Shown here in pieces: positions 29,670 through 46,874 of a DNA stretch of 64,000 nt. The notes beneath the pieces are model-generated. The model did no database searches and had not been told where the DNA came from. It saw nothing but the letters and a program-made list of their open reading frames with translations. Numbering within the stretch: position 1 is the first letter of the stretch; every line of letters starts with the position of its first letter. A program made the translations under genes and the position numbers. This stretch comes from an uncultured Clostridia bacterium (GTDB lineage: Bacteria > Bacillota > Clostridia > Christensenellales > CAG-138), in contig CAMVNO010000003.1 of NCBI GenBank assembly GCA_947168855.1, positions 155,474-219,473 on the forward strand, in the 5' to 3' direction.

Positions 29670-29707
29670 AAAAACGCCCTGCACCGTTCTGATGCAGGGC
29701 GTTTTTT
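29670..29707. terminator. Bidirectional terminator closing the phosphonate operon and the dipeptidase gene
   Basis: aaaaacgccctgca-ccgttctga-tgcagggcgtttttt. Confidence 0.8.
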
Positions 29708-29711
29708 CTTT

Positions 29712-30224
29712 TCAGTTGTTTTTCGGAGCGGCGGAACGGACGAGTCTGCCGAGGATCGTCTCCGGACGAACGACGCCTACCTGCGGATAGCGGCTGTCCT
29801 TGCTCTCGGCAATGTTGTCGCCGATCACGATATACTCTCCGTCCGCAAGCGTGATCTCGCGGTCCAGAAGACCGGCGAATCCGAATGCGCCTTCCCGATA
29901 AAGGGGCGTCGGCGTTCCGTTGACAAGAAGCGTTCCGTCCGCGATCACGACCGTATCCCCGGGACCTGCCGCGATCCGCTTGATCAGCACGGTATCGAAT
30001 CCCTCGCAGCGGAAAGCGATCACATCGCCTGTGCGGTACTCCTGCACGCACTTCTCCAGCAGAACGAGCTGCAGAGGATGGTACGTCGGCATCATGGATT
30101 TGCCCCGGATCAGGACGAACTGATACCAGTATGCGGAGACATACCAGCAGAGACAAACGATCAACAGGATCGCCGCAAGCAGCGGGATCGCTTTTTTCCA
30201 ATTGATTTTGCGCGGATCCTTCAA
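29712..30224 (-). CDS. lepB: Signal peptidase I (S26)
   Basis: N-terminal TM, GKSMMPTY (catalytic Ser box) and GDNIAESKDSR box. It is the last gene of the operon. Confidence 0.85.
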   Translation of the reverse strand: MKDPRKINWKKAIPLLAAILLIVCLCWYVSAYWYQFVLIRGKSMMPTYHPLQLVLLEKCVQEYRTGDVIAFRCEGFDTVLIKRIAAGPGDTVVIADGTLLVNGTPTPLYREGAFGFAGLLDREITLADGEYIVIGDNIAESKDSRYPQVGVVRPETILGRLVRSAAPKNN

Positions 30225-30228
30225 GGCG

Positions 30229-31353
30229 TTATGACAGCGTTCCGAGGTACGCCATGAAATTCTGCTTGTTCTCCAAAGCGGTGGTCGTCGGTCTTCCGAG
30301 GTTCTCGCGCGCGCCGATGGAGCACTTGACCTCGATCAGGCTCAGCGCATTTCTCCGCTTCGCCGCCTCCAGCTCGGAATCCAGCGCTTCAACACTGTCC
30401 ACGCATACGGCGTACGGGTATCCGCATGCCTTGGCGACGCCGACCAGATCGATCTGTCCGGCAACGGTCGGCATGCCTCCGACCGTTTCATGCGCGCCGT
30501 TGTTGATCACGACATGAATGAGATTCTTCGGCTTGTTTGCGCCCAGAACCGCCATGGAGCCCATGTGCATCAACACGGCGCCGTCGCCGTCGATGCACCA
30601 GATCCGCTGATCCGGCTTGTTGACGGCTACGCCCAACGCGATGGAGCTGCTGTGCCCCATCGAGCCGACGGTCAGGAAATCGTATTTATGGCTCTGCCCG
30701 TTCGAAACGCGGGTCTCAAACAGCTCGCGGGACGCTTTTCCCGTGGTGCTGATGATCGGGTCCTCGCCGCTCGCCTTTACAATGTGCTGAATGATCTCCT
30801 CCCGCAGCATGGGGTGATCGTTTTTGTACGTGACCTTTCCGTCATACGTCAGGGCATTCTTTCTGACGACGAACGCGACGTCCTTTCCTTCAAGAAGAAT
30901 CGCGCGGAAACGGTCCATGGCAGCGGAGAGCGCCTCTTCGGTCGTTTCCTTGTCGATGATGAAGGTGCGGACGTCCATATCCTCCAGAAGTTTTACCGTG
31001 ACCTCGCCCTGATAGATGTGCTGGGGCTCGTCGTGAACGCCCGGCTCACCGCGCCAGCCGACGATAAAGATCATCGGGATGGCGTAGACCTTGTCGCTGA
31101 GAAGGCTTGCGAGCGGATTGATGATGTTGCCCTCGCCGCTGTTCTGCATGTAGACAACGGGGACCTTTCCGGTTGCGAGATGATACCCCGCGGCGAGCGC
31201 CGCGCAGTTGCCTTCGTTTGCGGCGATGACATGATGCCGGGGATCGATCCCGTACGTTGCCATCAGGCAGTTGCAGAGCGCTTTCAGCTGGCTGTCCGGA
31301 ACGCCGGTATAGAAATCGGCGCCGATGATGTTCATGAGACTTTCAACTTTCAT
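30229..31353 (-). CDS. ppd: Phosphonopyruvate decarboxylase (TPP-dependent)
   Basis: 374 aa with ..ADFYTGVPDSQLK.. and the TPP-binding motif CIDGDGAVLMHMG..NNGAHETVGG. This is the size and architecture of AepY/Ppd. Confidence 0.88.
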   Translation of the reverse strand: MKVESLMNIIGADFYTGVPDSQLKALCNCLMATYGIDPRHHVIAANEGNCAALAAGYHLATGKVPVVYMQNSGEGNIINPLASLLSDKVYAIPMIFIVGWRGEPGVHDEPQHIYQGEVTVKLLEDMDVRTFIIDKETTEEALSAAMDRFRAILLEGKDVAFVVRKNALTYDGKVTYKNDHPMLREEIIQHIVKASGEDPIISTTGKASRELFETRVSNGQSHKYDFLTVGSMGHSSSIALGVAVNKPDQRIWCIDGDGAVLMHMGSMAVLGANKPKNLIHVVINNGAHETVGGMPTVAGQIDLVGVAKACGYPYAVCVDSVEALDSELEAAKRRNALSLIEVKCSIGARENLGRPTTTALENKQNFMAYLGTLS

Positions 31354-31357
31354 GTTC

Positions 31358-32455
31358 TTACCTCAGAATGGAATGATAAAGCGTATCGATGTCTTCCTCG
31401 CTGAGCCGGATCGGGTAATTCTTCAGCCTGACCGGATTCACCGAGCCGCAAAGGATCGCGTAGTCTTCCGGCGCCGCCTGCGGAACGGGCAGGGCGAGCT
31501 TATCAAAGAGCGCGTTCAGCTTGTCCGCGGCTGCTTCCGGGCAATCGCAACCCATCGCAAGCGCGATCTTTTGAAGCGCGTCCGTAAGATACTGTTTGCC
31601 CCGCGGATCAATGCAGGCGTCCGTATGCCGGATCGTCCACGGGAGCAGCACCCGGTTGCACAGAAACGCGGCGTGCCCGTGCGCGCAGCCGTACAGGCTG
31701 GTCAGCTTGTAGCACATGGCGTGCCCGGCTGTCGTCTGCGTGATGTTGATCGCCTTGCCGGCGGTGTTGGCGGCAAGAAGCATGTTCCTGCGTCCCTCTT
31801 CCGTATTCGCAAGGTAACCGTCCATATGGGCGAGGATCGTGCGGATCGCGTCAAAGCTGTAGGTCTGGCTCTCCTCGGTGCTGTTCACCGACCAGAGGGA
31901 TTCCATGGCGTGGCAGAAAGCGTCCATCATGGTGGATTTTTTCTGGTATTCCGGCAGCGTCTTCAGAAGACCGCTGTCCAGAAAGACGGCAGCGGGAATA
32001 CAGCTGAGATCCGCAACGGACTGCTTGACGCCCTGATAATAGATGACCGCAAAGCGCGTTGCTTCCGAACCGGTTCCCGCCGTGGTGGGGACGGCAAGGA
32101 AGGGGATGTCGTTCGGAACGATCGTCTGCTCGAGATAGTTCCGCTCGGGATCCATGTCGGAGTACAGCTTGATGCACTTTGCCACGTCCATCGCAGACCC
32201 GCCGCCGACCGCAACGATGGCGCTGCATCCCTCGGCGTGAAATCTCCGAACGCCGTCGACCACGGATTCATACTGCGGATTCGGCGTAAAGTCCGTAAAG
32301 AGGCTGACGCCGATCCGCGGTCCGAGCGTGAGAAAATGGCGGACGATGTCGTGCTGCTCCAGAAATTTGTCGCAAACAAGCATCAGCTTTGCTGCGCCGG
32401 AGCTTAAAAGCCAATCGTCAAGCCCCGCGTAATCGGTGATGATTCTCTGGTCCAT
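31358..32455 (-). CDS. Group III iron-containing alcohol dehydrogenase, probable phosphonoacetaldehyde reductase
   Basis: Fe-ADH motifs GGGSAMDVAK and PTTAGTGSE, plus His-rich metal site residues (HAMES.., AHGHA). It sits between ppm and ppd. Confidence 0.7.
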   Translation of the reverse strand: MDQRIITDYAGLDDWLLSSGAAKLMLVCDKFLEQHDIVRHFLTLGPRIGVSLFTDFTPNPQYESVVDGVRRFHAEGCSAIVAVGGGSAMDVAKCIKLYSDMDPERNYLEQTIVPNDIPFLAVPTTAGTGSEATRFAVIYYQGVKQSVADLSCIPAAVFLDSGLLKTLPEYQKKSTMMDAFCHAMESLWSVNSTEESQTYSFDAIRTILAHMDGYLANTEEGRRNMLLAANTAGKAINITQTTAGHAMCYKLTSLYGCAHGHAAFLCNRVLLPWTIRHTDACIDPRGKQYLTDALQKIALAMGCDCPEAAADKLNALFDKLALPVPQAAPEDYAILCGSVNPVRLKNYPIRLSEEDIDTLYHSILR

Positions 32456-32461
32456 GGGGGC

Positions 32462-34471
32462 TTACATCTCCTCCGGAATCAGGCGAATAATCTCCTTGAA
32501 CGGCATGAGAATGCTGTCGCATTCCTCCGCCCTGTGGTTTTCGAGGATCATTCGGGCGGCCTTCTGGATGGCGGGCACCTGCGCGCGCATCAGCTGATTG
32601 GCGTAGATGATGATGTTTGCGCCGATTTCTTTCCATTCCTCTTCGCGGACCGAGTTGAAGCTGGTCGGCACCAGTACGATCGGCGTGGTTTTGTTTTCCG
32701 CGCGGAATTTGCGGATGAATTCGATGATTTCGGACGGATCCTTTTTCCGGCTGTGGATCATGATGGCGTCGGCGCCGGCTTCGACAAAGGCGAAGGCGCG
32801 GGTCAGCGCATCCTCCATGCCGCGCTCCAGGATCAGGCTTTCGATTCTGGCGCAGATCATGAACTCTTTGGTTCGCTGTGCTTTCTTGGCGGCGCGGATC
32901 TTCTCGCTGAAATGCTCAATGCTGTCCTGCGTCTGCACGACCTCCGTACCGAAAAGCGAGTTCTTCTTGAGACCGGTCTTGTCCTCGATGATGACCATGC
33001 TGACGCCGAGCCGCTCCAGGGAACGGACGGTATACACGAAATGCTCCGTTTTTCCGCCGGTATCGCCGTCGAAGATGATCGGCTTTGTCGTGACTTCCGT
33101 AATGTCCTCGATGGTGCGGAAGCGGGAGGTCATGTCCACAAGCTCGATATCCGGCTTGCCTTTTGCCGTGCTGTCGCACAGGGAGGAGATCCACATGGCG
33201 TCGAATTGATGCGCGCCGCCGTCCTGATAGGAGATCGTGTTCTCAACGACGAGTCCGGTGAGACCGTCATGCGCTTCCATAGCCGTGATCAGTCCCTTTG
33301 CATCCAGCATTCTTCTGAGCCTTCCGCGGCGGACGTCCGGCATGGACAGGTTTGCGCGCGTACGGTTCTCCAGCTCCTCAAAACGGTCGTCCTTCGAATA
33401 CGGATACTCGACCAGCTTTCCGCCGTAGGACGCCAGAACAGCCGCAGCCTCGTCTCTCACCGGCTTCTGGAATCCGGTGCACCAGTCGTCGCCGTGCACC
33501 AGGATCGCCGGGTGATACGTTTCCAGATTCTCCCGATAGGACAGCGTTTTCTGTTCCACGACCTTGTATACGCCCGCAATGCTTTCCAGCATGGTTTTCC
33601 GGTCGGCATAGCCGACGAGCGGGAAGCGCTTGTAGGAAGCGACCGCCTCGTCGGAAAGAACGCCGATCATCAGACGGCCGAGCCGCTGCGCCTTCTTGAT
33701 GATGGCGATATGCCCGCCGTGCAGGATGTCGGTGGAGAAGCACATATAGACCAGGCGATCTTCCACCTCTTTGAGCTTGGCGGAAACAACGGCAAGATCT
33801 TCCTGATTGTCGATCTCCGCGCAGAGCAGATTCTGCACGTCCAGCGCCGCAATATCCGCGCGGCCTTCCAGCACGTTCAGCGCGTTTTCCGCATAGACCT
33901 TGTCGTTTCCGCTTTCGCAGAAGGCGGAGATCTGATCCAGCCAGAGCATCCAGCTTTCCCTGGTCAGCTTATACAGCGCCTGCGCCGCCATCGCGTCGTT
34001 ATACACGTCGACGCCGACCCGCAGGACCTTGCCGCCGCACACCTGCGCCTTGAAATCCTTTTCGGGAAGGGGCAGGGTGGAGGAGACCGTCATGCAGGAG
34101 CCGGGGAACGCCATGACCTGATCCAGCACCTCGTTTTCGAAAACAAGGTCTCCGTGCAGAAGCAGGATATCGTCCTCGAGATACGCTTTTGCACAGTAGA
34201 TGCTGTAGATATAGTTGGTCTCCGCGTAGCGCGGATTCTTGACGAAGGTATAGTGGAGCGGCAGTCCGAGGCTGAGACAGTAGTTCACAAGAACCGTGTC
34301 GAACAAACCGGTGGTCATAACGACCTCTTCGATCCCCGCTTCCGCCAGCTGGCGAAGCTGACGCGACAGGATCGTTTCCTTCGGATTCAGTTCCGTCATG
34401 CATTTCGGATGTTCGGAGGTCAGCGCGCCCATGCGGGAGCCGAGGCCGGAATTCAGAATAAGAGCTTTCAT
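32462..34471 (-). CDS. Tri-domain LicC-like nucleotidyltransferase / HIGH-motif cytidylyltransferase / phosphoenolpyruvate mutase
   Basis: The N-terminal domain has LILNSGLGSRMG. The middle domain has CFSTDILHGGH (HxGH). The C-terminal domain carries the PepM-diagnostic EDK-X5-NS (EDKTGLKKNS, nt 32957-32986). I prefer the start at 34471 (GAGGA upstream). The track ORF extends to 34495. Confidence 0.9.
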   Translation of the reverse strand: MKALILNSGLGSRMGALTSEHPKCMTELNPKETILSRQLRQLAEAGIEEVVMTTGLFDTVLVNYCLSLGLPLHYTFVKNPRYAETNYIYSIYCAKAYLEDDILLLHGDLVFENEVLDQVMAFPGSCMTVSSTLPLPEKDFKAQVCGGKVLRVGVDVYNDAMAAQALYKLTRESWMLWLDQISAFCESGNDKVYAENALNVLEGRADIAALDVQNLLCAEIDNQEDLAVVSAKLKEVEDRLVYMCFSTDILHGGHIAIIKKAQRLGRLMIGVLSDEAVASYKRFPLVGYADRKTMLESIAGVYKVVEQKTLSYRENLETYHPAILVHGDDWCTGFQKPVRDEAAAVLASYGGKLVEYPYSKDDRFEELENRTRANLSMPDVRRGRLRRMLDAKGLITAMEAHDGLTGLVVENTISYQDGGAHQFDAMWISSLCDSTAKGKPDIELVDMTSRFRTIEDITEVTTKPIIFDGDTGGKTEHFVYTVRSLERLGVSMVIIEDKTGLKKNSLFGTEVVQTQDSIEHFSEKIRAAKKAQRTKEFMICARIESLILERGMEDALTRAFAFVEAGADAIMIHSRKKDPSEIIEFIRKFRAENKTTPIVLVPTSFNSVREEEWKEIGANIIIYANQLMRAQVPAIQKAARMILENHRAEECDSILMPFKEIIRLIPEEM

Positions 34472-34491
34472 TGCATTCCTCACAAGAACCG

Positions 34492-34794
34492 TCAATCGTT
34501 GTTCTCTTCCGGAGCCGTTTCCGTCGTGACCGTTGCCGTTGCTTCCGGAGCCGCTTCGATCTCGTCGCTTTCAACCTCTTTGTTGCGATTCTCGTCGATT
34601 TTGAGCTTCTTCTTTGCTCTGCGGAAATAGATGCCGATCACGGCGCCGACGGCGATCACCAAGCCGGAGATGGCGGTGATCAGGGCGCCGCCGACGGACG
34701 GGTCGATATACGCCGAACCGTCGATGCCGAAGAAGAGCATTGCGCAGAACGCGACCGCTGCGCAGAGAGCCAGATGTTTGAACAGTTTTTTCAT
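34492..34794 (-). CDS. Small membrane protein with an acidic C-terminal tail (100 aa)
   Basis: Starts MKKLFKHLALCAAVAFCAMLFF (signal peptide or TM), followed by AYIDPSVGGALITAISGLVIAVGAVIGIYF (TM), a KKKLK segment and an acidic tail. It is tightly packed between operon genes. Confidence 0.5.
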   Translation of the reverse strand: MKKLFKHLALCAAVAFCAMLFFGIDGSAYIDPSVGGALITAISGLVIAVGAVIGIYFRRAKKKLKIDENRNKEVESDEIEAAPEATATVTTETAPEENND

Positions 34795-34798
34795 GGTT

Positions 34799-36676
34799 TT
34801 ATTTCTCCTTTTTTTCTGCAATTTTATTCCGGATTGCCTGGAAAATATAGTTTCCGCCGACCTCGGCGGCATGGTCCAAGTGATAAAGGTATTCATGCGC
34901 AAGCGCATTGATCTGTTCCCGATACACGTCCTTTTTCGCAAGAAGATCCGCAACCGCTTCCGCCGTTCTGTCGAGCTGATCCGGATCGATGCTGACGCCG
35001 AGCTTGTCCCGGAGGCTGAGATTGATGGATTCGGTCTTGATCTCTTCGTAATCGGGGTTCATGACCTTCATGGGCGTGTTGATAAACAGGACGGGGCGCA
35101 GCGTGGTAAACGCGTATTCCCAGCTGATGCCGGACCAGTCGGTAATCAGCAGATCCGCCTCCATGACGGGATTGTCGGAGGTGAAATCCGTCTGGATCAT
35201 GATGCCGCTGCCCTCATATTTGGCTTTCAGCGCGTTCATATACTCGCGCTTCAGGCGCACCTCCTGCGGATGCGGACGCACGACCACATCATACCCGTGT
35301 CCGGTCAGCTGGTCCAGCAGTGTTTCGAGACAGCTGTCGATGAGATTGTCCTTCTGCCAGGAGGGCGCGATCAGGATCTTGGGCTTTGCATGCGCCTCGT
35401 GCGCCGCGGACCGGAACTCCGCACGCAGAGCGTCGATCAGCGGGTAGCCGACCTCGACGAGCGTGCGCGGCTTCAGCTGATAGACGCGCTCGAACTCCAG
35501 CTCTTCCGCCTTCTGATGCTTGCCGGCAAGGAAGATCGTGTCAAAATGATCGGTGCAGCCCTTGCGCATCAGCATGGCGTGATTGTTCATGTCGTGCTGC
35601 ACAAAGATGTATTCGACGTCGTCCCGGATATAGCTCTTTTTGATATGGTAGTTGTTGAGATCCGGCATCGTCATCATGACCACGTCGGCGTCCATCTTCA
35701 TCATCAGCGTGATCAGACGGTTTTCGCCGATATAGTAGGCGCGGATGCGCGGGTTCTGCTCTGCCGTTTCAAAGATGCGGTCGTTTGGATCGCTGGTGAC
35801 GTAGTGGACCGTCAGATTCGTTTTTGCGAGGATGTACTCGATGTAATCCTTGAAATACTTGTAGAACCCGCTGCGCTCGGAATACACGACGAGATGCTTG
35901 TTTACGACGGAGAAGAAGCGCTTGTAGTCCGCCTTTTCTCTCTGCTTGTCCTCACGGGAGACTTTGCTCTTCAGCCCGTCCAGCTCCGCCAGCTCTTTTT
36001 TGCTCGCCGCCAGCTCTTCGTAGTCCACGTATTTCTTCGGCGGCATCATGACGTTCAAAAGAAGCTGCTGGAGGATCGTGAAGAGATTGCTTGCGATCCA
36101 GTATAAGCCGACGCCCAACGGTACGAACGCACCGAGGAAAAGCGAGATCGCGATGGATACGCCGCTCGTCAGCCATTGATTCGCCTTGGACTGTTCGCGC
36201 TGCAGGGGGTTCAGCTCGTTCTGCGCGAGACCGAGGATCAGCGCCGAAAGCCCCGCAGCCAACGGCATCAGAAGGCTGATCCCGCCCTTTTCAAAGGGGG
36301 TCACGGCAAGCACGCTGTCGCTTCCTTCAAGCCACGATCTGACGGCGCCGATGACGCCGAGCAACAGAATGACCTGAATAAACAGCGGCAGGGTCCCCAG
36401 AAGAGGCCTGTAACCGTTTTGTTTATAGATGGTCCGCGTTTCCTCGCCGATGGCGTCCTTGTCCCCGTAGTATTTGACCTTCATGCGGTTGAGGGCGGGC
36501 ATGATGGAGACCATCTTGAGACTGTTTTTGTTTGTCCACAGGCTGACCGGAAACACGATCACCTTGGTCAAAAGCGTAAAGAGCAGGATGGCGACGGTAT
36601 AATTCCCCACCCATTGATAGCACAGCCGCATCAGTACGGCAAATACGTTTCCGATGGCTGTCATGACTGCCTGCAT
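34799..36676 (-). CDS. Fusion of a YidC/Oxa1-family insertase domain and a CDP-glycerol glycerophosphotransferase (TagB/TagF)-like domain
   Basis: Residues 1-212 carry GNYTVAILLFTLLTKVIVFPV...LPLFIQVILL...GVGLYWIASNLFTILQQ (YidC hallmarks). Residues ~255-625 carry VVVRPHPQE and LLITDWSGISWEYAF (TagF-family HP and TDYSS-like motifs). It is a single uninterrupted ORF. Confidence 0.8.
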   Translation of the reverse strand: MQAVMTAIGNVFAVLMRLCYQWVGNYTVAILLFTLLTKVIVFPVSLWTNKNSLKMVSIMPALNRMKVKYYGDKDAIGEETRTIYKQNGYRPLLGTLPLFIQVILLLGVIGAVRSWLEGSDSVLAVTPFEKGGISLLMPLAAGLSALILGLAQNELNPLQREQSKANQWLTSGVSIAISLFLGAFVPLGVGLYWIASNLFTILQQLLLNVMMPPKKYVDYEELAASKKELAELDGLKSKVSREDKQREKADYKRFFSVVNKHLVVYSERSGFYKYFKDYIEYILAKTNLTVHYVTSDPNDRIFETAEQNPRIRAYYIGENRLITLMMKMDADVVMMTMPDLNNYHIKKSYIRDDVEYIFVQHDMNNHAMLMRKGCTDHFDTIFLAGKHQKAEELEFERVYQLKPRTLVEVGYPLIDALRAEFRSAAHEAHAKPKILIAPSWQKDNLIDSCLETLLDQLTGHGYDVVVRPHPQEVRLKREYMNALKAKYEGSGIMIQTDFTSDNPVMEADLLITDWSGISWEYAFTTLRPVLFINTPMKVMNPDYEEIKTESINLSLRDKLGVSIDPDQLDRTAEAVADLLAKKDVYREQINALAHEYLYHLDHAAEVGGNYIFQAIRNKIAEKKEK

Positions 36677-36715
36677 AGGCGATGATACCTCCCGATATGA
36701 TACGTTCTCAAAGGA

Positions 36716-38827
36716 TCAGTCTTTGTTGATCTCGATCGATGTGAAAGAGATGGTTCGCGTTCTCTTCCCGACGGAGATGGTCATTTCGTTCGGATCGATC
36801 TCGTCAAACTCAAACGAAAGGACCAGAACGTTGGTGCCCTTGAATACGGTCGGAATGTCCAGCGTGAAATGGATCCCGTTGTCCTGGATGTTCTTTGAAT
36901 TCGCGCTGTCGTTCTCAAAGGCCGGAATGTTGTTGGCATATGCGATAAAGCTGGTGGAGTTGTACAGCTTTCCTACGCCGATATCCACCTGAAGCGTTCC
37001 CGTTTTGGGAAGGTTTTCGATCGGGATCTCGATCTGCGCATGCGGTCCGTACAGACGGGTCAGCCAGCCGGATGTGTTGCCGAAGCCGTCCGTGCAGTAT
37101 TTGTTTGCTGTGGCGTCCATATCGAACGTCAGCTTGGTGCCGAGCTTGTACGGCGTATCTTTTCCTTCGGTGTCGATATAGGTCTCAACCAGCTCGAGAG
37201 AACCCGGGTCGCCTGCGTGGGAGAACGAAACATATTCCTTAATGGCGACCTTGGAACGGTTGGTCGTGTTATAGAAGAAATGCCGCTCGCGGACCTGATC
37301 CTCGGTCAGGCTGAACAGATCCTCGCTGTAGACGCCGGTCTTTCCGCTCTTGCCCGCAATGCCGTACAGAACTCCCGACAGATCAAACATGGAAGCGGGA
37401 ACGTCGGTTTCGGTCATCGCGCCCTTGGCGCCGGGCGCCTTATAGAGGAACATCATGTGTTCGCCGATATGCAGATCCCCGTGGTCGGCGGTCAGAATGA
37501 TCAGCGAGGAATCATACATGCCCTTTGCCTTCAGGTCGTCCAGAAGCGATTTCACAATCGCAAAGCTGCCTTCCACCTGTTCCTCGAGAGAGGTTTTCTT
37601 TTTGTTGTGCAAACCGTCGCTTGTCAGCGTGTATGCGGAATGCGCGCCCTTCAGCAGGTAGAAACGGAAGGCTTTATTGCAGGACGTGTTGACGGTGTAT
37701 CCGTTGCTCGAAAGGAAATTCGTATGGAACAGCGCGTCGTCGGGCGCGTATGCCGTTTTGTCCGACGCGACCCCGGCAAAAGCCTTCGCTTCGTCAAACT
37801 CCGAGGTGGAAAGCCAGAAGAACCGCTTCAGAAGATGCGGCGCAAAGCGGAAAGCGGAAAGCTTATACAGCTTCGCTCCCAGAATTCCGTACGAACCGAC
37901 TTTTTCTGCGCCGTTGTCAATGTTTTCAACATAATCCGCCGCGCCGCTGCCGTAAAAATCGGATTCCGAGAAGCAGCGCACGTCCCAGCCGCTCTTGTTC
38001 AGAGCGGACAGAGGGTTCTCCTGCGACCAGATGGTGTCGACATACTGTGAATACGTTGTGTCCCTCGTAAAGGGCTTTCCGGTGAGCAGGGACGGAACCG
38101 CGATGATGGTTCTCGCGCCGCTTGACATCATGTTGGTGTAATGGACAAAGCCGTCCAGATTCTCGACATAATCCGGATGATTGTCGAGGTATTCCATGAA
38201 ATAATCTTCGTCCATCGTATCCAGAGCGATGATGAGGACATTTTCTTCTTTGCCCAGATCATACATGCCTTCCGTCGTAACGGTCAGATAGGCCTTGTCC
38301 GCCGGCTTGTAGTTTATGATGTCCACGGTCAGCGCCGGCAGCTGGATCACGGTGAGGAAAAGGGAGGCAAACAGGATCGCTTTTTTCCACTTGTCCTTCA
38401 GGAAGATGGAAACGACAAAGGGCAGGGCGATGCAGACCGCCCAGACCAGTGTATCGATCACGGCGTATCCCTTATAATCGGACCACTTGATTTCCGTTCC
38501 GTCCAGAACGCCGTTGCCGTAGCTGATGTTGATGAACGTGCCCTGCAGATACATTCCCAGGAAAATGCCGAACAAAAGCTTGACATAGATCGAGTATGCC
38601 TTCTCCGGCAGCAGCATGCCTGCAAGGAACAGGACTGCGAATACGATCAGCGATCCGATGATCGTTACGAGCAGGGTATCGCTGATGCGGAACCAGAATT
38701 CCCCGGTATTTTCAAGGAACATGGATAGGGGACCGTAGAAAAAGGCCGTAAATACGCCGAAAAAAACAAGCGCCAGCAACACGGGGATTCTCTTTTTTCT
38801 TTCTTTCATTCTGACTCTTTCCTCCAC
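36716..38827 (-). CDS. LtaS-like sulfatase-family (alkaline-phosphatase superfamily) membrane transferase
   Basis: About five N-terminal TM helices precede an extracytoplasmic sulfatase fold (VLIIALDTMDEDYF ... LKGAHSAY ... ILTADHGD) and a ~150-aa extra C-terminal domain. An alternative start MKERKK lies at 38809. Confidence 0.78.
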   Translation of the reverse strand: MEERVRMKERKKRIPVLLALVFFGVFTAFFYGPLSMFLENTGEFWFRISDTLLVTIIGSLIVFAVLFLAGMLLPEKAYSIYVKLLFGIFLGMYLQGTFINISYGNGVLDGTEIKWSDYKGYAVIDTLVWAVCIALPFVVSIFLKDKWKKAILFASLFLTVIQLPALTVDIINYKPADKAYLTVTTEGMYDLGKEENVLIIALDTMDEDYFMEYLDNHPDYVENLDGFVHYTNMMSSGARTIIAVPSLLTGKPFTRDTTYSQYVDTIWSQENPLSALNKSGWDVRCFSESDFYGSGAADYVENIDNGAEKVGSYGILGAKLYKLSAFRFAPHLLKRFFWLSTSEFDEAKAFAGVASDKTAYAPDDALFHTNFLSSNGYTVNTSCNKAFRFYLLKGAHSAYTLTSDGLHNKKKTSLEEQVEGSFAIVKSLLDDLKAKGMYDSSLIILTADHGDLHIGEHMMFLYKAPGAKGAMTETDVPASMFDLSGVLYGIAGKSGKTGVYSEDLFSLTEDQVRERHFFYNTTNRSKVAIKEYVSFSHAGDPGSLELVETYIDTEGKDTPYKLGTKLTFDMDATANKYCTDGFGNTSGWLTRLYGPHAQIEIPIENLPKTGTLQVDIGVGKLYNSTSFIAYANNIPAFENDSANSKNIQDNGIHFTLDIPTVFKGTNVLVLSFEFDEIDPNEMTISVGKRTRTISFTSIEINKD

Positions 38828-38876
38828 ATAAAAACGACTTGCGTCAAAATAAAAATGTCTGATTATAACTTTATTA

Positions 38877-38905
38877 ATTATAGCACTGTCGATTCAATTA
38901 ATCAA
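38877..38905 (-). promoter_or_regulatory. Candidate sigma-A promoter of the phosphonate operon
   Basis: On the minus strand: TTGATT, 17-nt spacer, TATAAT, inside a markedly AT-rich ~100-nt stretch. Confidence 0.5.
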
Positions 38906-42142: not shown

Positions 42143-42243
42143 CGACCGAGTCGGCGCCGCGGCGTTCGAGTCCTCTCTCATAAAGCCAAACAAAAAACCA
42201 CCCGTGCGGGTGGTCTTTTGTTTGGCAGGGGCAGAAGGACTCG
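42143..42243. repeat. 101-nt direct repeat, distal copy (contains a 21-nt tRNA-Trp 3'-end fragment)
   Basis: 97 of 101 positions are identical to 42348-42448. It ends with tggcaggggcagaaggactcg, the reverse complement of the tRNA 3' end. Confidence 0.85.
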
Positions 42244-42347: not shown

Positions 42348-42448
42348 CGACCGAGTCGGCGCCGCGGCGTTCGAGTCCTCTTTCATAGAGCCAAACAAAA
42401 AACCACCCGCACGGGTGGTCTTTTGTTTGGCAGGGGCAGAAGGACTCG
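42348..42448. repeat. 101-nt direct repeat, proximal copy (overlaps the 3' end of the intact tRNA-Trp and its terminator)
   Basis: See the distal copy. The four differences are C/T, A/G and TG/CA in the hairpin loop. Confidence 0.85.
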
Positions 42449-42501
42449 AACCCTCAAGAACGGTTTTGGAGACCGCTATGTTACCATTACATCATGCCCC
42501 T
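42428..42501 (-). tRNA. tRNA-Trp (anticodon CCA), CCA-3' encoded
   Basis: Hand-folded cloverleaf of 74 nt: acceptor AGGGGCA/TGCCCCT, D-arm ATGT/ACAT, anticodon stem GCGGT/ACCGT with loop CTCCAAA, T-arm GAGGG-TTCGAGT-CCTTC, discriminator G. Confidence 0.9.
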
Positions 42502-45446: not shown

Positions 45447-46874
45447 ATGGGGTATCGGCGGCTCCCGTTTGAGGAGTATTTCATCAACACCAGCGAAGAT
45501 TTCACGCACACCGGGCGGGTGACCTATCCGGTGAAATATACCGCGGTCAAATACAATACCACCAAGTTTTTCAAGCTCTTCGGCATCTCGCACGAGGTCA
45601 ATTACGAGATCCACTACGAGCCGGACCGCGACGTGATCCAACTGCATTTTCAGCGGACGTTCGGCATGATTGACTGGGTCGCGAACATCTTTGAGTTCGC
45701 GAGCCGCTATTATCACGCGATCGAGTTTGAGGGCGAGCGGCTGCAGCTGCGCGTCCATCACGGCTGGGGCAATATGTACCTTGCGATCAAGCGTGAGGTG
45801 CGCGAAAAATGGAAGGCGCTCAAGGATGCGCATCCCGACGCGGCGACGGAGATCCTCGGCTGGTCCCTGGGCTCCGGCATTGCCTGCCTTTGCTGTCAGG
45901 ATCTGAACTACAATTTCGGGGTCAAGCCGTATCTCTACACGTTCGGGAGCGTGCGCCCGTTCAAGTGCACGCCGCTGAACAAAAAGCGCATGCACCGGTA
46001 TCTTGCGACGCTGTACACGGATTGCGAGAATTTTGCCGACGTCAACGATCTGATCACCTATATGCCGCCGTTCCGCGGGTTCACGATGATCCGCCGCGTC
46101 AACGTCGGCACGGACCTGAAGCGCTCGTTCTTCCGGCTGATCCACCCGCTTCGCTACCATGTGCATTACGATCTGCCGGAGCTGTATCGGGCGATCGTTG
46201 AACGGACGGCGGAGGAGCCGAAGCCCGGCAGGACGGACGTGTACCTTGCGCTGATCCCGGATCCGATCGACTACCGGCCTGTCCTTCCCGCGGAGCGGCA
46301 GGCACAGCTCGATGCGACGCGGAACGAACAGGTCAGAGCGCAGCGCTATACCGCGTGGCAAACGCTCTTAGCAGGACTGCGGCACAGCCGGGGAATCGGC
46401 GCGGAGGAAGCCGGGCTGAAACGATGCGAAAACGGCAAGTGGATCTCGGAAGCGTGCGGCGTTTCGATCTCGCATTGCAGAACGGCGGTTGCGGCGGCGG
46501 TTTCGGACGGCGCGGTCGGCGTCGATATCGAGCCCTATGAGGACGCGCGGTATCGGGAAGCGCTGCTTTCGAGGATCGCGTCGGAGCCGGAACGCGGGCT
46601 GTTTCCGTCGCTTACGATCGGGCAGAGGATTGCGGCGCTGTGGACGCGCAAGGAGGCGGCGTTCAAGCGCGGCACGGGTAATACCGCTTCGCCGATCGGG
46701 GAGAACGCGGCGGCAAACGGCATCCGCACGGCGGTGATCCGGCTCGGCGATCGGGACTATGCGGTTTCCGCTGCGGCAGAGGAAGGGACGGCGCTGCGCA
46801 TCTTTACGGTCTCGGGTGAAACGATCACGGAACGGACCGATTTTACGCTGCTTGAAACGCAGGATCCGGTATAA
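45447..46874 (+). CDS. Lipase class 3-like domain fused to a 4'-phosphopantetheinyl transferase (Sfp-type) domain
   Basis: The N-terminal domain has RVHHGWG..., the nucleophile elbow GWSLGSG and TFGSVRPF. The C-terminal domain has GVDIEPY... and WTRKEAAFK (PPTase motifs). Confidence 0.68.
   Translation: MGYRRLPFEEYFINTSEDFTHTGRVTYPVKYTAVKYNTTKFFKLFGISHEVNYEIHYEPDRDVIQLHFQRTFGMIDWVANIFEFASRYYHAIEFEGERLQLRVHHGWGNMYLAIKREVREKWKALKDAHPDAATEILGWSLGSGIACLCCQDLNYNFGVKPYLYTFGSVRPFKCTPLNKKRMHRYLATLYTDCENFADVNDLITYMPPFRGFTMIRRVNVGTDLKRSFFRLIHPLRYHVHYDLPELYRAIVERTAEEPKPGRTDVYLALIPDPIDYRPVLPAERQAQLDATRNEQVRAQRYTAWQTLLAGLRHSRGIGAEEAGLKRCENGKWISEACGVSISHCRTAVAAAVSDGAVGVDIEPYEDARYREALLSRIASEPERGLFPSLTIGQRIAALWTRKEAAFKRGTGNTASPIGENAAANGIRTAVIRLGDRDYAVSAAAEEGTALRIFTVSGETITERTDFTLLETQDPV

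Follow-up and report, generated by a model that had tools for sequence, protein, structure and literature searches.

How might an activated phosphonate be installed on the cell surface from a locus that encodes no LicD-type transferase? The steps of phosphonate surface tailoring that follow C–P bond formation and nucleotide activation "remain enigmatic" (Rice et al. 2019, PMC6697681), and the question is raised by a seven-gene operon located in a 64,000-nucleotide (nt) stretch of DNA from an uncultured Clostridia bacterium (contig CAMVNO010000003.1, positions 155,474 to 219,473; hereafter the window). In transcription order, the operon encodes an LtaS/EptA-like membrane protein, a YidC::TagF fusion, a membrane protein of 100 amino acid (aa) residues, a tri-domain enzyme ending in phosphoenolpyruvate (PEP) mutase (PepM), an iron-dependent alcohol dehydrogenase (Fe-ADH), a phosphonopyruvate decarboxylase (Ppd) and signal peptidase I. 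What was observed directly is the gene content, the families and folds assigned, the conservation of catalytic residues, and the co-occurrence and natural fusion of genes. On these sequence data we hold, with about even confidence, that the operon would make 2-hydroxyethylphosphonate (HEP), activate it with CTP and hand CMP-HEP to an installer cassette acting as a head-group transferase.

Proposed synthesis and activation of the phosphonate

The PEP mutase domain scored 395.4 bits against TIGR02320 (cut-off 319.55) and matched the PDB PepM structure 1m1b with E = 2e-41. Its translation holds EDKTGLKKNS, which fits the PepM-diagnostic motif EDKxxxxxNS and agrees with the preliminary description of this locus. 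Both thiamine pyrophosphate (TPP) domains, TPP_enzyme_N and TPP_enzyme_C, were found in Ppd, and the Fe-ADH scored 116.5 bits against PF00465 and 84.2 bits against PF25137. In the proposed donor pathway, PEP would be converted to phosphonopyruvate, then to phosphonoacetaldehyde and HEP, and CTP activation would yield CMP-HEP.

The Fe-ADH was assigned from its TIGR03405 score, its genomic context and the database names of its homologues. Against TIGR03405, the curated model of phosphonate-associated ADHs, it scored 140.6 bits, below the cut-off of 423.7, and it scored about equally (143.9 bits) on ErcA; both values tell against the reductase step, and since the cut-off was missed, the assignment rests on context and not on equivalog membership. 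The gene sits 4–6 nt from the PepM and Ppd genes, and homologues at 63–65% identity carry the NCBI name "phosphonoacetaldehyde reductase". Three of these homologues were looked up in context, and all three lie in clusters ordered as YidC::TagF, small protein, tri-domain PepM, ADH, Ppd. The earlier assignment of this enzyme to the phosphonate type thus stands on its linkage to PepM and on the naming of its homologues, but not on the curated model.

A sample of 80 loci was taken from GTDB species genomes encoding a relative of the fusion protein, and the six-frame open reading frames (ORFs) of these loci were searched within 10 kb with the window's domains, using phmmer and Pfam. Many of the contigs were short, so that the cassette counts are lower bounds; the counts also ignore phylogenetic relatedness, which weakens the associations drawn from them. 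PepM was found in 18 of the 80 loci and was accompanied by an Fe-ADH in 8, by a class V aminotransferase in 7 and by both in none; no Fe-ADH occurred without PepM among the 80 loci. The class V aminotransferase of locus L007, the one scanned against NCBIfam, is an aminoethylphosphonate (AEP) transaminase (457.5 bits against TIGR03301 PhnW/AepZ, cut-off 360.8). Six of the eight Fe-ADHs were of the window type, and two (L034 and L061) belonged to another lineage with TIGR03405 as the best model (248.6 bits). Two unrelated ADH lineages in the slot that AEP transaminase fills elsewhere are as expected for alternative fates of phosphonoacetaldehyde. Such a comparison of pepM neighbourhoods had been suggested before, together with the claim that HEP rather than AEP is made, and the mutually exclusive ADH and transaminase loci lend support to that claim. 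Because the ADH takes the transaminase slot, is strictly exclusive with the transaminase, occurs only with PepM and has homologues named phosphonoacetaldehyde reductase, HEP is the best reading of the pathway product from sequence.

No member of the aminotransferase, LicD or glycosyltransferase families was found by the domain scan of the seven operon proteins and ten flanking ORFs, as had been described earlier, and every domain call made at that time was reproduced with Pfam and NCBIfam. A different view would place the ADH outside the pathway, with AEP supplied by a transaminase encoded elsewhere in an otherwise ordinary AEP-decoration locus. The missed TIGR03405 cut-off is compatible with this, as is the scope of the transaminase scan, which was confined to the operon and ten flanking ORFs. 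The strict exclusivity of ADH and transaminase, the restriction of the ADH to PepM loci, the second, unrelated ADH lineage in the same slot, the close spacing to PepM and Ppd and the concordant NCBI naming make this view very improbable.

The tri-domain enzyme carries two nucleotidyltransferase domains in front of PepM. The HxGH domain (PF01467, 48.4 bits) scored 128 bits against the Fom1 cytidylyltransferase (PDB 5x3d), to which it is 49% identical, and only 38 bits against TagD, a glycerol-3-phosphate cytidylyltransferase. Fom1 was nested among the HxGH domains of the ADH-type loci in a neighbour-joining tree; the HxGH domains of AEP-type loci from related Clostridia formed a separate clade, with 32–38% identity to that of the window. 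The LicC-like domain matched PF12804 (39.8 bits, cut-off 27) and gave weak matches to LicC (1jyk, 36 bits) and PntC (6pd1, 30 bits). Its strong homologues (at least 228 bits) were confined to ADH-type loci and to L020, which has PepM and the LicC-like domain with no ADH or Ppd within range, and AEP-type loci carry a different PF12804/PF00483 enzyme in its place. Fom1 cytidylyltransferase makes CMP-HEP in fosfomycin biosynthesis (PMC6697681), and PepM fused to both PF12804 and PF01467 has already been recorded (2.9% of Ppm in the survey of Rice et al. 2019, PMC6697681). CMP-HEP formation is accordingly well supported at the level of sequence, the Fom1-like HxGH domain having direct precedent. 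The preliminary description had assigned this step to the LicC-like domain; CMP activation itself is well founded, but the HxGH domain, which groups with Fom1, is by its 49% identity to that enzyme predicted to be at least as good a CMP-HEP maker.

The same resemblance would suit a diffusible natural product of the fosfomycin type instead of an envelope decoration, as Fom1-, Fom2- and FomC-like enzymes represent the first three fosfomycin steps (PMC6697681 and general knowledge). The operon and the scanned flanks yielded no methyltransferase, epoxidase, ligase or exporter, however, and the other four operon genes all encode membrane or secretion proteins, so that a diffusible product is scarcely credible.

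The installer cassette and a proposed route to the envelope

The YidC::TagF fusion was examined by structure comparison. Its AlphaFold2 (AF2) model (mean predicted local distance difference test score, pLDDT, 85.1) gave TagF (3l7l, E = 1.5e-10) as the top Foldseek match, and the N-terminal half aligned with the YidC structures 6al2 and 3wo7 at a root-mean-square deviation of 3.4–3.8 Å. When the TagF-like domain alone was searched against PDB by phmmer, no match was returned, and fold comparison was needed for this domain. The residues K38, H361, R467-P468-H469-P470 and T512-D513-W514-S515 were invariant in the fusion. K38 lies in the first transmembrane (TM) helix and is, by sequence, the presumed equivalent of the arginine in the YidC groove. 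The invariant motifs QH(D/G)M, RPHP and TDWS are similar to the His and TDYSS motifs known from PF04464 members. Several database homologues of the fusion are 830–1081 aa long.

The protein encoded by the first gene consists of five N-terminal TM helices, an extracytoplasmic domain of the alkaline phosphatase superfamily and a C-terminal beta-sandwich (approximately aa 500–697), and this fold was recovered in an AF2 model with pLDDT 86.8. In an alignment of 34 homologues, D197, D200, T234, H390, D442 and H443 were invariant. The profile built from these homologues reached LtaS (2w5q, E = 3e-9, 38.7 bits), with GAHSPY aligned with NHYPF and ADHGD with GDHYG; choline-sulfatase, phosphonate monoester hydrolase and PbgA scored similarly to LtaS. 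Foldseek placed full-length PbgA/YejM first, followed by LtaS, EptA, MCR-1, BcsG and sulfatases. On this sequence and fold evidence, the protein is best filed as LtaS/EptA-like and not as LtaS. Two homologues (P0125 and P0133, approximately 1040–1050 aa) carry an additional Acyl_transf_3 domain (PF01757), and a separate Acyl_transf_3 gene is present in the AEP-type locus L029, which hints at O-acylation of the same acceptor.

A scheme for the installation can be proposed from these assignments. The TagF-like domain is the only cytoplasmic enzyme of the operon that belongs to a family with CMP-linked phosphoryl donors, and for this reason it is the proposed HEP transferase. Anchored by YidC, it would take the HEP-phosphonyl group of CMP-HEP, release CMP and attach the group to a hydroxyl on a membrane-bound acceptor, for which a lipid or glycolipid is the simplest choice. 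Since the catalytic domain of the LtaS-like protein lies outside and TagF inside, the intermediate must cross the membrane, for which the fused YidC domain is the obvious, though unproven, candidate; the intermediate may reach the outer leaflet through the hydrophilic groove of that domain. By analogy with LtaS, EptA and BcsG, the extracytoplasmic alkaline-phosphatase-type domain would then take the head group onto its Thr nucleophile and pass it on to the final envelope acceptor, giving a HEP-decorated envelope component and not a HEP homopolymer. LtaS and EptA use phosphatidylglycerol and phosphatidylethanolamine, respectively, as head-group donors, and the scheme would mirror the three-component logic of extracytoplasmic teichoic acid glycosylation. 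The placing of TagF-like and LtaS-like enzymes in the role of LicD had been put forward earlier, and these enzymes as transferase candidates are supported by the family, fold and catalytic-residue evidence and by the lack of LicD in the scanned proteins.

The preliminary description had regarded the gene set as atypical. Instead, the operon proved to be one variant of a cassette consisting of the LtaS-like protein, YidC::TagF and the 100-aa protein, which signal peptidase often joins. Thousands of homologues share the two Pfam domains of the fusion protein, and at least 579 species genomes encode one, with carriers among Oscillospiraceae, Lachnospiraceae (Lachnospira eligens), Anaerotruncus, Erysipelotrichaceae, Coriobacteriia (Gordonibacter) and Saccharibacteria; in the gut and rumen, the cassette is common among Clostridia, Coriobacteriia and Saccharibacteria, and Anaerotruncus sp. 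G3(2012) is a cultured carrier of the HEP type. Within the 80 loci, the LtaS-like gene was found in at least 54, the small protein in at least 70 and signal peptidase I in at least 29.

The cassette parts were also found joined in single ORFs of 1198–1466 aa. LtaS-like::YidC::TagF fusions occur at L003:7475-11875, L009:8270-11878 and L014:888-4484, and YidC::TagF::small::LtaS-like fusions at L075:10007-14170 and L082:9950-14155; in Coriobacteriia the small protein is, as a rule, fused to the LtaS-like protein. Either order of the large fusions agrees with the predicted topology, with the alkaline phosphatase domain and the YidC N-terminus outside and TagF and the LtaS-like N-terminus inside. 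The small protein, in which the pattern AYIDPSV..IQAVAGVVIA..GIYxRKAKKKLGIDENKNKEVESD is conserved across 75 homologues, had been considered as a secreted peptide released by cleavage, on which the signal peptidase would act, but the four-part fusions favour an uncleaved two-TM hairpin. Staphylococcus aureus LtaS is processed by signal peptidase, and this analogy suggests that the signal peptidase of the operon may serve a similar processing role.

These fusions also bear on whether the end product might be a phosphonolipid, with the TagF-like domain attaching HEP to a membrane lipid and the LtaS-like protein acting separately or in regulation, as does the pseudo-enzyme PbgA/YejM. Such a product would agree with PbgA/YejM being the top full-length structural match, with HEP-type loci that have no adjacent LtaS-like gene, and with the grouping of PepM clusters with sulfatase-family genes among putative phosphonolipids (PMC8942020). 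The invariance of D197, T234, H390, D442 and H443 in the 34 homologues counts against it, as an LtaS-type catalytic set is not needed in a pseudo-enzyme, and the natural fusion of the LtaS-like protein to YidC::TagF argues for a single pathway. We regard the phosphonolipid as an unlikely end product.

Three types of donor module were found beside the cassette, namely HEP, AEP and NTase::CobD-like (NTase, nucleotidyltransferase), and in all three they directly adjoin the fusion gene. The AEP module contains a cytidylyltransferase::PepM fusion, Ppd, AEP transaminase and an NTase. The NTase::CobD-like proteins (approximately 600 aa) join a LicC-like NTase to a class I/II pyridoxal phosphate (PLP) enzyme and were found in eleven loci (L038:11925-13736, L004, L024, L033, L039, L042, L043, L047, L050, L060 and L071), with Lachnospira eligens and Saccharibacteria among the carriers. 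The best matches of the PLP part were the threonine-phosphate-decarboxylase-like 6oux (153 bits) and CobD TIGR01140 (171 bits, below the cut-off), and by sequence the fusion probably makes a CDP-amino-alcohol, e.g., CDP-ethanolamine. The installer half would be a self-contained envelope-modification machine that many Gram-positive bacteria of the gut and rumen use with different activated head groups, accepting HEP, AEP and probable amino-alcohol phosphates from interchangeable modules.

Two further gene sets were noted beside the cassette. In a Huintestinicola sp. (L001:12159-15521), a PepM locus without ADH or AEP transaminase contains a metallophosphoesterase, a hexapeptide-repeat acyltransferase, DUF6564 and a saccharopine-dehydrogenase-like protein, and it may make a different phosphonate head group. 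A 729-aa NTP_transf_3::RmlD-like reductase::phosphoribosyltransferase protein at L022:11833-14022 may be another donor module.

The literature on YidC/glycerophosphotransferase, on phosphonates and teichoic acid and on CMP-AEP transferases yielded no description of the cassette, and the inventory paper PMC8942020 makes no mention of YidC, Glyphos_transf or teichoic acid. The installer cassette is built from known protein families, and no prior description of it as a system was found in this literature or in the two survey papers (PMC6697681 and PMC8942020).

Two clades, A and B, were distinguished in the fusion family. The window protein and its nearest relative (L003) are chimeric, with a clade-A YidC domain and a TagF domain closest to clade B: their YidC domain scored 300–334 bits against clade A members and at most 216 against clade B, and their TagF domain 580–611 bits against clade B and 358–444 against clade A. 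A clade-A YidC was present in 10 of 10 HEP-type loci, and none of the 50 clade-B loci was of the HEP type (Fisher p = 1.8e-5, phylogeny not corrected for). It is thus the YidC part, and not the TagF part, that co-varies with the HEP donor. A groove that handles the head group would fit this pattern, HEP being purely anionic and AEP and phosphoethanolamine zwitterionic; the association could equally come from shared ancestry. The TagF-domain phylogeny did not track the donor type.

That independence opens another explanation, in which the TagF-like domain uses a constant donor (e.g., CDP-glycerol) to make or prime an acceptor, and attachment of the phosphonate falls to the LtaS-like protein, drawing on a separate lipid donor, or to a transferase encoded elsewhere. 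Donor genes are absent within 10 kb at many of the cassette loci, and the second NTase domain could make a second activated substrate, both in keeping with a constant donor. Against this, the operon and scanned flanks hold no other transferase that would use CMP-HEP, the HxGH domain resembles Fom1 far more closely than TagD, and donor modules adjoin the fusion gene in all three types. The explanation is rather doubtful as a whole.

The preliminary description had gone further and suggested that a TagF-type polymerase could build poly(hydroxyethylphosphonate). The TagF-like domain would then be a processive polymerase that extends the chain through the HEP hydroxyl, with the LtaS-like enzyme anchoring or extending the product. 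In favour of this, the closest fold is that of TagF, polymerases are among the PF04464 members, HEP offers a free hydroxyl, and the distinct clade-A YidC of all ten HEP-type loci could reflect an anionic, perhaps polymeric, cargo. The same cassette nevertheless serves AEP, which has no free hydroxyl, and the probable amino-alcohol phosphate of the NTase::CobD-like modules, which would have none either, so that a head-group transferase is likelier than a poly-HEP polymerase. The window TagF domain is also closest to TagF domains of non-HEP loci, nothing in the sequence reports chain length, and the TagF family includes single-addition enzymes such as TagB and TarF. Polymerisation is therefore disfavoured and has in our estimate a low likelihood. 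A similarly slim chance is given to an undescribed machine in which the TagF-like domain would build a C–P-bonded HEP oligomer or polymer on a membrane anchor, YidC would export it and the LtaS-like enzyme would attach it outside; that YidC would there replace an ABC transporter or flippase, and that its clade-A form would reflect purely anionic cargo, is equally improbable.

Several points weigh against the head-group transferase that we prefer. The products were not observed, and all of the chemistry, including every substrate, the order of the steps, the role of YidC and the acceptor, is inferred from sequence; the scramblase role of YidC is a conjecture. The closest relatives of the window TagF domain sit in AEP-type or donor-less loci, and a TagF phylogeny independent of donor type means that a constant donor is conceivable for this domain. 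The model needs only one of the two nucleotidyltransferase domains, no LtaS-like gene lies within 9 kb in the HEP-type loci L086 and L088, and the model gives the signal peptidase no role. If the head-group transferase is true, Gram-positive envelopes would have a further, new way of acquiring charged head groups, which matter for host recognition and cationic peptide resistance; a YidC domain would have a non-insertase use; and cultured organisms would be identified in which HEP-modified envelopes can be sought.

Operon layout, signals and flanking DNA

The operon comprises seven co-directional minus-strand ORFs (29712–38809), all present where the preliminary description had placed them. With the preferred starts, the intergenic gaps in transcription order are 39, 4, 20, 6, 4 and 4 nt, in agreement with the range given there. 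The most likely starts are ATG 38809 for the first gene, preceded by GGAGG, rather than GTG 38827; ATG 34794 for the small gene, giving a 100-aa product; and ATG 34471 for the tri-domain gene. The last of these starts agrees with the gene calls on contigs of close relatives. The features are collected in Table 1.

Table 1. Positions of the operon genes, their domains and the flanking signals in the window
Feature	Position (nt)	Strand	Evidence
LtaS/EptA-type membrane phosphotransferase, predicted	36716..38809	-	Pfam Sulfatase, weak, 28.6 bits
YidC::TagF fusion	34799..36676	-	PF02096, 105.8 bits; PF04464, 45.9 bits (cut-off 22.1)
YidC/Oxa1 core of the fusion (aa 26-208)	36053-36601		TIGR03592, 96.1 bits (cut-off 84.3)
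Cytoplasmic TagF-like phosphotransferase part of the fusion (aa ~258-625)	34802-35905		
100-aa two-TM hairpin protein, nearly invariant AYIDPSV loop, cytoplasmic tail RKAKKKLGIDENKNKEVESD	34492..34794	-	75-homologue alignment
Tri-domain enzyme, LicC/PntC-like NTase::Fom1-type HxGH cytidylyltransferase::PEP mutase	32462..34471	-	Pfam and NCBIfam matches
NTase domain of the tri-domain enzyme	~33776-34471		
HxGH domain of the tri-domain enzyme	~33392-33757		
PEP mutase domain of the tri-domain enzyme	32465-33325		
Group III Fe-ADH, probable phosphonoacetaldehyde reductase (phosphonoacetaldehyde to HEP)	31358..32455	-	Pfam Fe-ADH and ADH_Fe_C
Phosphonopyruvate decarboxylase (Ppd)	30229..31353	-	TIGR03297, 464.6 bits (cut-off 312.5)
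Signal peptidase I	29712..30224	-	TIGR02227, 90.8 bits (cut-off 47); SMMPT, KRIAAGPGD and GDNxxxSxDSR motifs
Promoter-like site TTGATT-17-TATAAT, extended TG	38877..38905	-	10/12 matches; intergenic, past the hairpin of the upstream gene
Bidirectional intrinsic-terminator-like hairpin	29670..29706	both	16-bp stem, eight G-C pairs, T-runs on both strands

The promoter-like site reported earlier is present at 38905–38877, beyond the terminator-like hairpin of the upstream gene (38973–38958). Promoter-like matches in the region were not enriched (6 observed against 4.8 expected from shuffles), so that the site is supported by its position alone. The hairpin described as a bidirectional terminator at the end of the operon was likewise recovered. 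An Rfam scan of the window returned no riboswitch or leader, with one tRNA as the sole match.

The G+C content of the operon (approximately 58%) equals that of its surroundings. The host is a spore-forming gut or rumen Clostridium, and the flanks hold housekeeping genes of a spore-former (M19 and M20 peptidases, DUF5058, RNase Y, FeoB, GerAC and a class A penicillin-binding protein); two of the ten scanned flanking ORFs had no Pfam match. Synteny extends over all seven genes of the operon in a relative with 81% identity, where the M19 peptidase and RNase Y also adjoin it. A 475-aa protein encoded at 45447–46874 (plus strand) carries both a class 3 lipase and a 4'-phosphopantetheinyl transferase (ACPS) domain, an unusual pairing, and it is also kept beside the operon in that relative. 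A 101-nt direct repeat (42143–42243 and 42348–42448, 96% identical and 205 nt apart) overlaps with its second copy the 3' end of tRNA-Trp (42428–42501, minus strand), the sole tRNA gene of the window, and may be an integration remnant (att-like duplication) at this tRNA.

Comparison with known systems

The donor half represents known chemistry, that of Fom1, Fom2 and FomC and of the HEP group of Li and Horsman (2022), which accounts for 8.5% of ppm neighbourhoods. The early fosfomycin pathway of Streptomyces wedmorensis (Fom1 cytidylyltransferase::PepM, Fom2 Ppd and FomC Fe-ADH) has the same enzyme set and the same predicted product, CMP-HEP, and Fom1 shares with the window the order of the cytidylyltransferase–PepM fusion as well as the closely similar HxGH domain. 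In contrast to that pathway, the window has no downstream fosfomycin genes, carries an extra LicC-like NTase and is coupled to membrane transferases in place of tailoring enzymes. The HEP-bearing exopolysaccharide of Stackebrandtia nassauensis shows that HEP can serve as a substituent of envelopes or glycans; of ten HEP-type cluster families, only that of S. nassauensis and one other have an isolated product (PMC8942020). Such clusters belong to Actinomycetes, however, and are rich in glycosyltransferases, and no YidC::TagF cassette is described in PMC8942020.

The Pnt clusters with PntC (Rice et al. 2019, PMC6697681) share the logic of nucleotidyl activation and the cell-surface destination. 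The characterised clusters make CMP-AEP with an AEP transaminase near LicD-like proteins or glycosyltransferases, whereas the window has an ADH for the transaminase and the YidC::TagF plus LtaS-like cassette for LicD. The cassette is a concrete, testable transferase candidate for the missing step in phosphonate surface tailoring.

Both membrane enzymes have counterparts in other envelope pathways. The TagF/TarF CDP-glycerol glycerophosphotransferases (PF04464; PDB 3l7i-3l7m) are the best fold match and share Pfam membership, but identity is 17%, the window protein has a fused YidC core and its donor is probably not CDP-glycerol. LtaS, EptA, BcsG and PbgA share with the window protein the five TM helices and the extracytoplasmic alkaline phosphatase fold, in which a nucleophilic Thr and Asp/His metal ligands are conserved; they differ from it by an identity of 12–17%, by its additional C-terminal beta-sandwich and by its dedicated hairpin partner. 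The phosphocholine pathway of Streptococcus pneumoniae (LicA/B/C/D) follows the same logic, in which an envelope polymer receives a head group from its cytidylyl-activated form and CMP is released, but the operon has no LicD, LicA or LicB, and its candidate transferase is of the TagF-like GT-B fold rather than the LicD fold.

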